Shown in pieces: positions 31,693-31,830 of a DNA stretch of 64,000 nt; position 1 is the stretch's first letter; every line of letters starts with the position of its first letter. This DNA is from Eledone cirrhosa (taxonomy: Eukaryota). Location: contig CAXHJY010000872.1 of NCBI GenBank assembly GCA_964016885.1, positions 11,692 to 75,691 on the forward strand. Direction: 5' to 3'. The notes beneath the pieces were generated by a model, which saw only the letters and a program-made list of their open reading frames with translations, was not told the DNA's origin and made no database searches. A program made the translations under genes and the position numbers.

Positions 31693-31830
31693 CATTATTT
31701 CTGACGACAGCATATATGTGTAGGTATGTATATTCCCTCTGATAGTTTGTATAAATATTGTACATAGATCTATAGAATATGCATACCAACTCTAACACAT
31801 ATATATCCTAGAAACGATCGTAAAATGATG
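31693..31830 (+). ncRNA. Hammerhead with ~100-nt extended stem II
   Basis: CATTATTT-CTGACGA-[ATATATGTG/CACATATAT, GTATGTATATTC/GAATATGCATAC]-GAAA-CGATCG-TA-AAATGATG. Confidence 0.75.

Follow-up and report, generated by a model that had tools for sequence, protein, structure and literature searches.

A type I hammerhead motif with a 103-nt helix II and a family-wide C.A apposition in a Hydra-clade Penelope-like element of Eledone cirrhosa

Introduction

The role of hammerheads in Penelope-like elements (PLEs) is an open question, and censuses of the motif rely on descriptors in which helix II is short and its base is paired. We analyzed a stretch of 64,000 nt from Eledone cirrhosa (assembly GCA_964016885.1, contig CAXHJY010000872.1, positions 11,692 to 75,691 of the forward strand; hereafter the window). 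A preliminary description of this DNA had noted a hammerhead variant with a stem II of about 100 nt and C opposite A at its base, and had proposed that it might be an overlooked subclass. The locus raises the question of what the motif belongs to, whether its C.A is a decayed pair, the mark of a subclass or one state of a labile position, and whether the RNA is likely to cleave.

Results

Anatomy of the motif

All elements of the type I core (C3-U4-G5-A6-N7-G8-A9, G12-A13-A14, A15.1-U16.1 and H17) are present, surrounded by three helices with helix I open, and helix III is stable solely as an intermolecular duplex (Table 1). Stem I consists of 8 bp (31693-31700 with 31823-31830) and a ninth pair at 31692/31831. 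The stem I, core heptamer, long hairpin, GAAA and palindromic stem III of the preliminary description were all recovered, as was its stem II of about 100 nt with C opposite A: the helix II domain (31708-31810) measures 103 nt, opening with C31708 and closing with A31810. The standard 10.1-11.1 pair, usually G-C, is absent, and C.A takes its place in ~98-99% of copies. This pair is a frequent, not an absolute, feature of hammerheads, for which U.U and C.A exceptions are published. Equivalently, C31708 can be read as an extra nucleotide after A9, which makes A-U the first pair and leaves A31810 as a second unpaired base.

The hairpin is interrupted, as had been described, but in detail only two pairs (A-U and G-C) stand above the C.A before an internal loop intervenes. 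From the base, helix II runs through these 2 bp, the internal loop, approximately 10 bp, a bulge, 13 bp, an internal loop, 3 bp, a conserved internal loop and a 7-bp hairpin. Folding, which the preliminary description had suggested as a check, gave -38.7 kcal/mol for the motif region (z = -4.69), with 0 of 200 shuffles equally low. In the minimum-energy fold of the window copy, some of the core is paired to the stem III strand, and a fold in which the core stays free lies 3.2 kcal/mol higher.

Table 1. Features of the two long-armed hammerheads (positions in the window of 64,000 nt).
Feature	Position	Strand	Basis or remark
Whole fragment, 5'-truncated pLTR and optional tail of a Hydra-clade PLE	31670..32020	+	(TA)n on both sides
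Stem I, 5' strand	31692..31700	+	Sequence reading and pattern scan
Hammerhead core C3-A9	31701..31707	+	N7 is C here, A in most copies
C10.1, facing A11.1	31708..31708	+	C in 4138/4226 copies
Long interrupted helix II	31709..31809	+	Folding and consensus structure
Conserved 4x3 internal loop and the terminal hairpin that it closes	31744..31767	+	31744-31747 versus 31765-31767
A11.1	31810..31810	+	A in 4287/4322 copies
Core G12 A13 A14 A15.1 (GAAA)	31811..31814	+	Sequence reading and pattern scan
Palindromic stem III strand	31814..31821	+	8-bp self-duplex, -10.0 kcal/mol; no stable monomer hairpin
N17 (A), predicted cut 3' of this base	31822..31822	+	Hammerhead consensus; A or U in the population
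Stem I, 3' strand	31823..31831	+	Sequence reading and pattern scan
Remaining pLTR to the main 3' end of copies	31832..31886	+	34/54 copies stop at 31880-31889
Optional tail, ~135 nt	31887..32020	+	16/54 copies stop at 32015-32024
Hammerhead of the second Hydra-clade family	44346..44462	-	90-nt helix II, C.A at base, same internal loop

The suggestion that searches with short stem II limits miss such motifs held. Rfam gave no match in the window at gathering level; at E values up to 10 it picked up a short neighbor (31312-31356, see below), but neither long motif matched any hammerhead model. Craig et al. (2021; PMC8557442) searched for the core alone with a spacer of 7-17 nt, and the "long helix II" of PMC13725137 comprises 6-8 bp.

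Copies and conservation of the family

The motif recurs as a dispersed repeat, with 44 matches drawn from the best 40 of 89 candidates. The pattern core + CA + 70-100 nt + TA + GAAAC has 4397 matches in the genome and 190 for the reversed control. By exact-pattern counts, which take in pattern-matching subfamilies, 10.1 and 11.1 are nearly invariant (Table 1), and 11.1 is C in just 5 of 4322 copies. The family consensus is thus not canonical and the C.A is no decay; a canonical consensus was the outcome by which the preliminary description would have been refuted. Another pattern search (8595 matches, 1086 in the control) is dominated by a further large subfamily with a helix II of 114-116 nt. 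Across the superfamily, including the loci of this subfamily that were examined, C.A is kept in 75 of 78 distinct helix II sequences, in which the adjacent pair 10.2-11.2 is A-U (62), G.U (13), G-C (1) or other (2). Two-sided changes occur at 6 of 32 consensus pairs (13 sequences); within the superfamily covariation stays modest, with a covariation term of -0.93 kcal/mol, and several of the two-sided changes come from one diverged row.

In contigs of run X1, variation of 10% or more within the core and stem III is confined to N7 (31705) and N17 (31822, A to U). These are the two free core positions, and N17 avoids G. A frequent stem I variant, G-to-A at 31827, turns U.G into U-A. Variation confined in this way would be expected under selection of the master copies for a functional core; the uniformity of the copies reflects those masters and not selection on individual insertions. 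In a sample biased to copies with an entire hammerhead, 20 of 54 start inside the stem I 5' strand (equivalent to 31690-31699), often at an inversion junction. At six loci (L002, L003, L005, L006, L012 and L018) the 5' half of the hammerhead region is repeated in degenerate form ~230 nt upstream of the hammerhead, in the 3' UTR of longer copies.

Penelope element context

In longer copies, an ORF on the same strand lies 0.7-1.1 kb upstream of the hammerhead and carries RWR, DKT, CxCX5C and CxxC...CxH. The Hydra clade is defined by RW[KR], DKT, CxCX5C, CxxC and CxH motifs (Craig et al., 2021; PMC8557442, section 11). RWR is present in loci L196, L197, L198 and L202, and DKT in L197, L198 and L202, with EKT in L196; the CxCX5C linker and the C-terminal CxxC and CxH are found in the family ORFs. 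The window family is represented by broken RT-endonuclease ORFs (loci L061, L066 and L196-L198). Pfam returned no family above cut-off for four ORFs, and the domain assignment rests on the motifs and 89 homologues.

Further Hydra-clade traits are (TA)n flanks, inverted and tandem copies, and an optional tail. Units stand in tandem with a hammerhead at each end, 3.7-4.2 kb apart (loci L196-L198). The two clusters of 3' ends (Table 1) are explained by an optional tail, as is known for PLEs (PMC8557442; PMC11167929). Two other assignments were rejected: a Naiad PLE has an N-terminal endonuclease and lacks a canonical hammerhead, and the endonuclease-like region is C-terminal here; a non-LTR retrozyme needs short non-coding tandem units, and those found are 3.7-4.2 kb and coding. 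The copy around the window hammerhead is a lone truncated fragment of ~350 nt and is probably inert by itself.

The hammerhead of the second long-armed family in the window lies at 44458-44350 on the minus strand. The protein of this family is ~30-50% identical to that of the first, and locus L062 holds an intact 782-aa ORF with RT followed by a C-terminal endonuclease. An AATAAA lies after its predicted cut site (44341-44346, minus strand). The same hexamer occurs within 25 nt past the cut site in 16 of 27 clusters (controls 1, 1 and 1), 0-15 nt after the predicted cut; the corresponding figures are 0/51 for the window family, 0/5 for hold-out families and 8/32 for metagenome loci. Where AATAAA follows the predicted cut, cleavage would leave the coding RNA without its poly(A) signal.

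States of positions 10.1 and 11.1 and length of helix II

A search with relaxed stem II length, also proposed in the preliminary description, yielded tens of thousands of pattern matches in many families. We found no earlier description of this radiation, in which helix II measures 45-126 nt, the two C.A families having 90-126 nt. Matches with a helix II of ~70-100 nt lacking C10.1 numbered 17682 (control 699), and those with C.A on shorter helices 1907 (control 110), some rows being false in both sets. We grouped the long-helix-II hammerheads into 28 clusters (27 and the sister family), 14 of which are single-copy and may be decayed or chance matches. Over these, 10.1/11.1 is C.A in six, A.A in five, U.U in four, and G.U, G-C and U-A in three each; four further states occur once, giving ten in all. 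Of the 20 matches to the sister family (15 loci), 18 have U-A and the remaining two come from a different family; G-C is found in a relative of another family with C.A (F14 versus F1 and F23). A.A families stand between the two C.A families on the protein tree. The position is thus labile, and the claim that C.A marks a subclass was not supported by the comparison; C...A is, moreover, published for PLE-X1_cBra. A Hydra-type ORF was found upstream for eight of the long-helix families.

A metagenome scan with a single protein piece as query gave no match; with an alignment as query it gave 77 loci. Hammerheads were present at 35 of the 67 Hydra loci with enough downstream DNA. The 32 distinct ones have a helix II of 10-29 nt, with U.U (19), G-C (8), A-U (3) or G.U (2), and scanning the 42 loci that lacked such a match under relaxed settings added 14 more, all of at most 25 nt. 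Neither C.A nor a long helix occurs in the 49 metagenome Hydra loci with a hammerhead.

Trees were built solely from sequences of this genome and the metagenomes. FastTree placed 9 of 9 long-helix rows on one side (support 0.999). A quick IQ-TREE run, from which five near-identical rows were excluded and whose careful search is unfinished, gave a support of 96 to eight of the nine together and of 16 to all nine. It also sets every row of this genome apart from the metagenome rows, so the long-helix grouping is confounded by host lineage and composition. Going by these sequences, the long helix II may have arisen only once.

A shared internal loop in helix II

In the conserved loop the 5' strand reads A-N-U and faces a strand that has A-G at its end; the flanking pairs differ between families. 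When the loop was required in some fold within 2.5 kcal/mol of the minimum, it was found in 15 of 28 clusters (reverse complement 1, reversed 0, complemented 1), leaving 13 without it, and in 71 of 78 distinct superfamily helix II sequences versus 0 of 78 reverse complements. This rule was written after inspection of these same, mutually related families, and it demands pairing, so that it cannot itself prove cross-family covariation. A looser first rule gave 15 of 28 versus 2, 6 and 6 in the strand controls, with 5.1 expected from shuffles. In hold-out families the loop was present in two of five, one being a distant relative of the window family and the other, a tandem repeat, probably a chance match. 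When 18 hammerheads of different families were aligned with MAFFT by sequence alone, the 5' strand of helix II came out misaligned. Branched long helices without the shared loop were seen at loci L025, L158, L175, L061:680 and L156 (clusters F3, F20 and F8).

The distance from loop to core varies from 14 to 36 nt across families, which argues against a fixed tertiary contact; protein binding is not thereby shown. The letter orders that we take to characterize kink-turns and sarcin-ricin-type loops fit the shared loop incompletely. A literature search returned no description of a helix II loop of this kind.

Other hammerheads and repeats in the window

A short canonical type I hammerhead with a G-C base and a 14-nt helix II lies in a different repeat fragment (31312-31356, minus strand; 29.1 bits against RF00163, below gathering). 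At 6775-8306 a 467-bp tandem array carries one hammerhead per unit (7113, 7580 and 8047) and is retrozyme-like, with an inverted hammerhead copy beside it at 6343 (region 6313-8077). A type I family with a helix II of 30-31 nt and variable 10.1/11.1 occupies six window sites: 3433 (-), 4890, 19848 (-), 24223, 25267 (-) and 25413. Further hammerhead-like cores begin at 26416, 27572 (-), 41547 (-), 44106 (-) and 5308 (-). A loose filter gave 20 core starts over the window, none at Rfam gathering.

Broken ORFs of non-LTR retrotransposons lie at 15082-17840, 33769-35286 and 39211-39945, all on the minus strand; we take them to be L1/Tx1-like and R4-like. An abundant LINE reverse-transcriptase coding stretch matches the loose hammerhead pattern (L306-L308 and similar rows; for its ORF compare L070) and makes up about one third of the first 100 matches listed. 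Since this coding false positive inflates the count, the loose-pattern total (18305 versus 662 in the control) was set aside as a number of hammerheads.

Discussion

The reading that we favor, and consider likely, is that the motif forms the 3'-terminal type I hammerhead of a Hydra-clade Penelope element, with a 103-nt helix II and a C.A fixed in the family, and cleaves slowly as a double hammerhead. A tandem transcript would bring two palindromic stem III strands together in an 8-bp pairing, and each core would then cut slowly 3' of N17, freeing unit-length RNA. Loss of G10.1, a metal ligand, would lower the cleavage rate. The hammerheads of PLEs are reported to cleave weakly and as dimers (PMC4209133; PMC6765202). 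The N7 of G10.1 binds the catalytic metal but is not indispensable, its removal costing ~30-fold (PMC6961537), and natural hammerheads with U.U at 10.1/11.1 or with a minimal or missing helix II still cut (PMC3088659; PMC7229834; PMC13725137). The long helix II may be an added domain, its conserved loop likely serving as a binding or docking site. The most plausible partner would be the element's own protein, and cleavage may be protein-assisted. A bolder version, which we hold to be doubtful, is that the loop docks the telomerase-like RT-endonuclease and that binding switches on a ribozyme weakened at 10.1/11.1, as the cis signal by which the element chooses its RNA. If true, this would be a natural protein-gated hammerhead, with helix II as an add-on domain of 45-126 nt bearing the A-N-U / A-G loop.

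Alternatively, the motif may no longer cut, the fold being kept in the pLTR for structure or protein binding while 10.1/11.1 drifts under relaxed catalysis. The ten letter combinations in 28 clusters versus four among the 32 metagenome Hydra hammerheads would fit such drift, and for the anole element, the one PLE examined in vitro, cleavage is dispensable for insertion (PMC11167929). That no RNA-seq reads ended at the cut site of that element also weighs against the reading that we favor. We nevertheless regard loss of cutting as unlikely: the core varies at N7 and N17 only, N17 still avoids G, and core and palindromic stem III are kept across families whose proteins are as different as those in the window. 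That the C.A defines a distinct subclass, with the wobble required and compensated by the long helix, seems improbable, even though it is fixed in the window family, is the commonest state among long-helix clusters and is absent from the metagenome loci. The U-A sister family, the G-C relative and the A.A families that split the two C.A families on the protein tree all speak against a requirement, as does a published plant element with C.A on a short helix II (Craig et al., 2021, File S2).

It is true that AT-rich sequence readily gives long hairpins and that hammerhead patterns yield family-wide false positives, as the reverse-transcriptase coding stretch illustrates. It is nonetheless hardly credible that the motif is a chance match or one canonical G-C hammerhead that has decayed, and the family counts refute this: the pattern far exceeds its reversed control, C at 11.1 is vanishingly rare, and the motif sits at the 3' end of a PLE.

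The genome offers a natural series of families, with the same core, ten states of 10.1/11.1 and a helix II of 45-126 nt, which makes tolerance at this position directly testable. The series also suggests that published hammerhead counts are too low in such genomes. The shared internal loop is one definite place at which docking or the binding of a protein may occur.

Comparison with known systems

Animal non-LTR retrozymes share type I hammerheads with a weak helix III, and one axolotl family has a U.U mismatch at the helix II base (Cervera and de la Pena, 2020; PMC7229834; Li et al., 2026); they are short non-coding tandem repeats, whereas the window family has its own ORF. The anole element Poseidon PAc likewise has a PLE hammerhead near internal RT start sites and an optional 3' tail (Frangieh et al., 2024; PMC11167929), but it belongs to another clade, and protein-assisted cleavage is demonstrated there, the motif described here being a predicted one. 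The minimal hammerheads of metazoan PLEs agree in their pLTR location, palindromic helix III, predicted action as dimers, larger-than-usual helix II and, in many cases, an extra nucleotide after A9 (PMC4209133). Cervera and de la Pena (2014; PMC4209133) describe a highly conserved G10.1-C11.1 and a helix II of 6-8 bp; here that pair is absent and helix II comprises ~35 bp in several segments.

Also close are the Hydra PLEs of Craig et al. (2021; PMC8557442), with their C-terminal endonuclease ORF, (TA)n targets, pLTR type I hammerhead, palindromic stem III and non-canonical 10.1/11.1, commonly U.U. Hydra pLTR hammerheads, 10.1/11.1 mismatches and one C.A case are thus already in print. Units measure 3.0-4.2 kb here and under ~3 kb there. 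The Hydra hammerheads seen in File S2 of that study have a helix II of ~11-26 nt and no C.A, whereas the two C.A families described here have 90-126 nt and a conserved loop. Our literature search returned no description of PLE hammerheads with a helix II near 100 nt, although the supplements of the 2014 and 2026 surveys could hold some. Two plant, endonuclease-less elements in File S2 each share one of these traits: PLE-X1_cBra has C...A at the stem II base, as here, and PLE-X1_sMoe a stem-loop II enlarged to ~50 nt. In File S2 the two features occur separately and with shorter helices, and the entries seen describe no shared loop; in the Eledone families they are combined.
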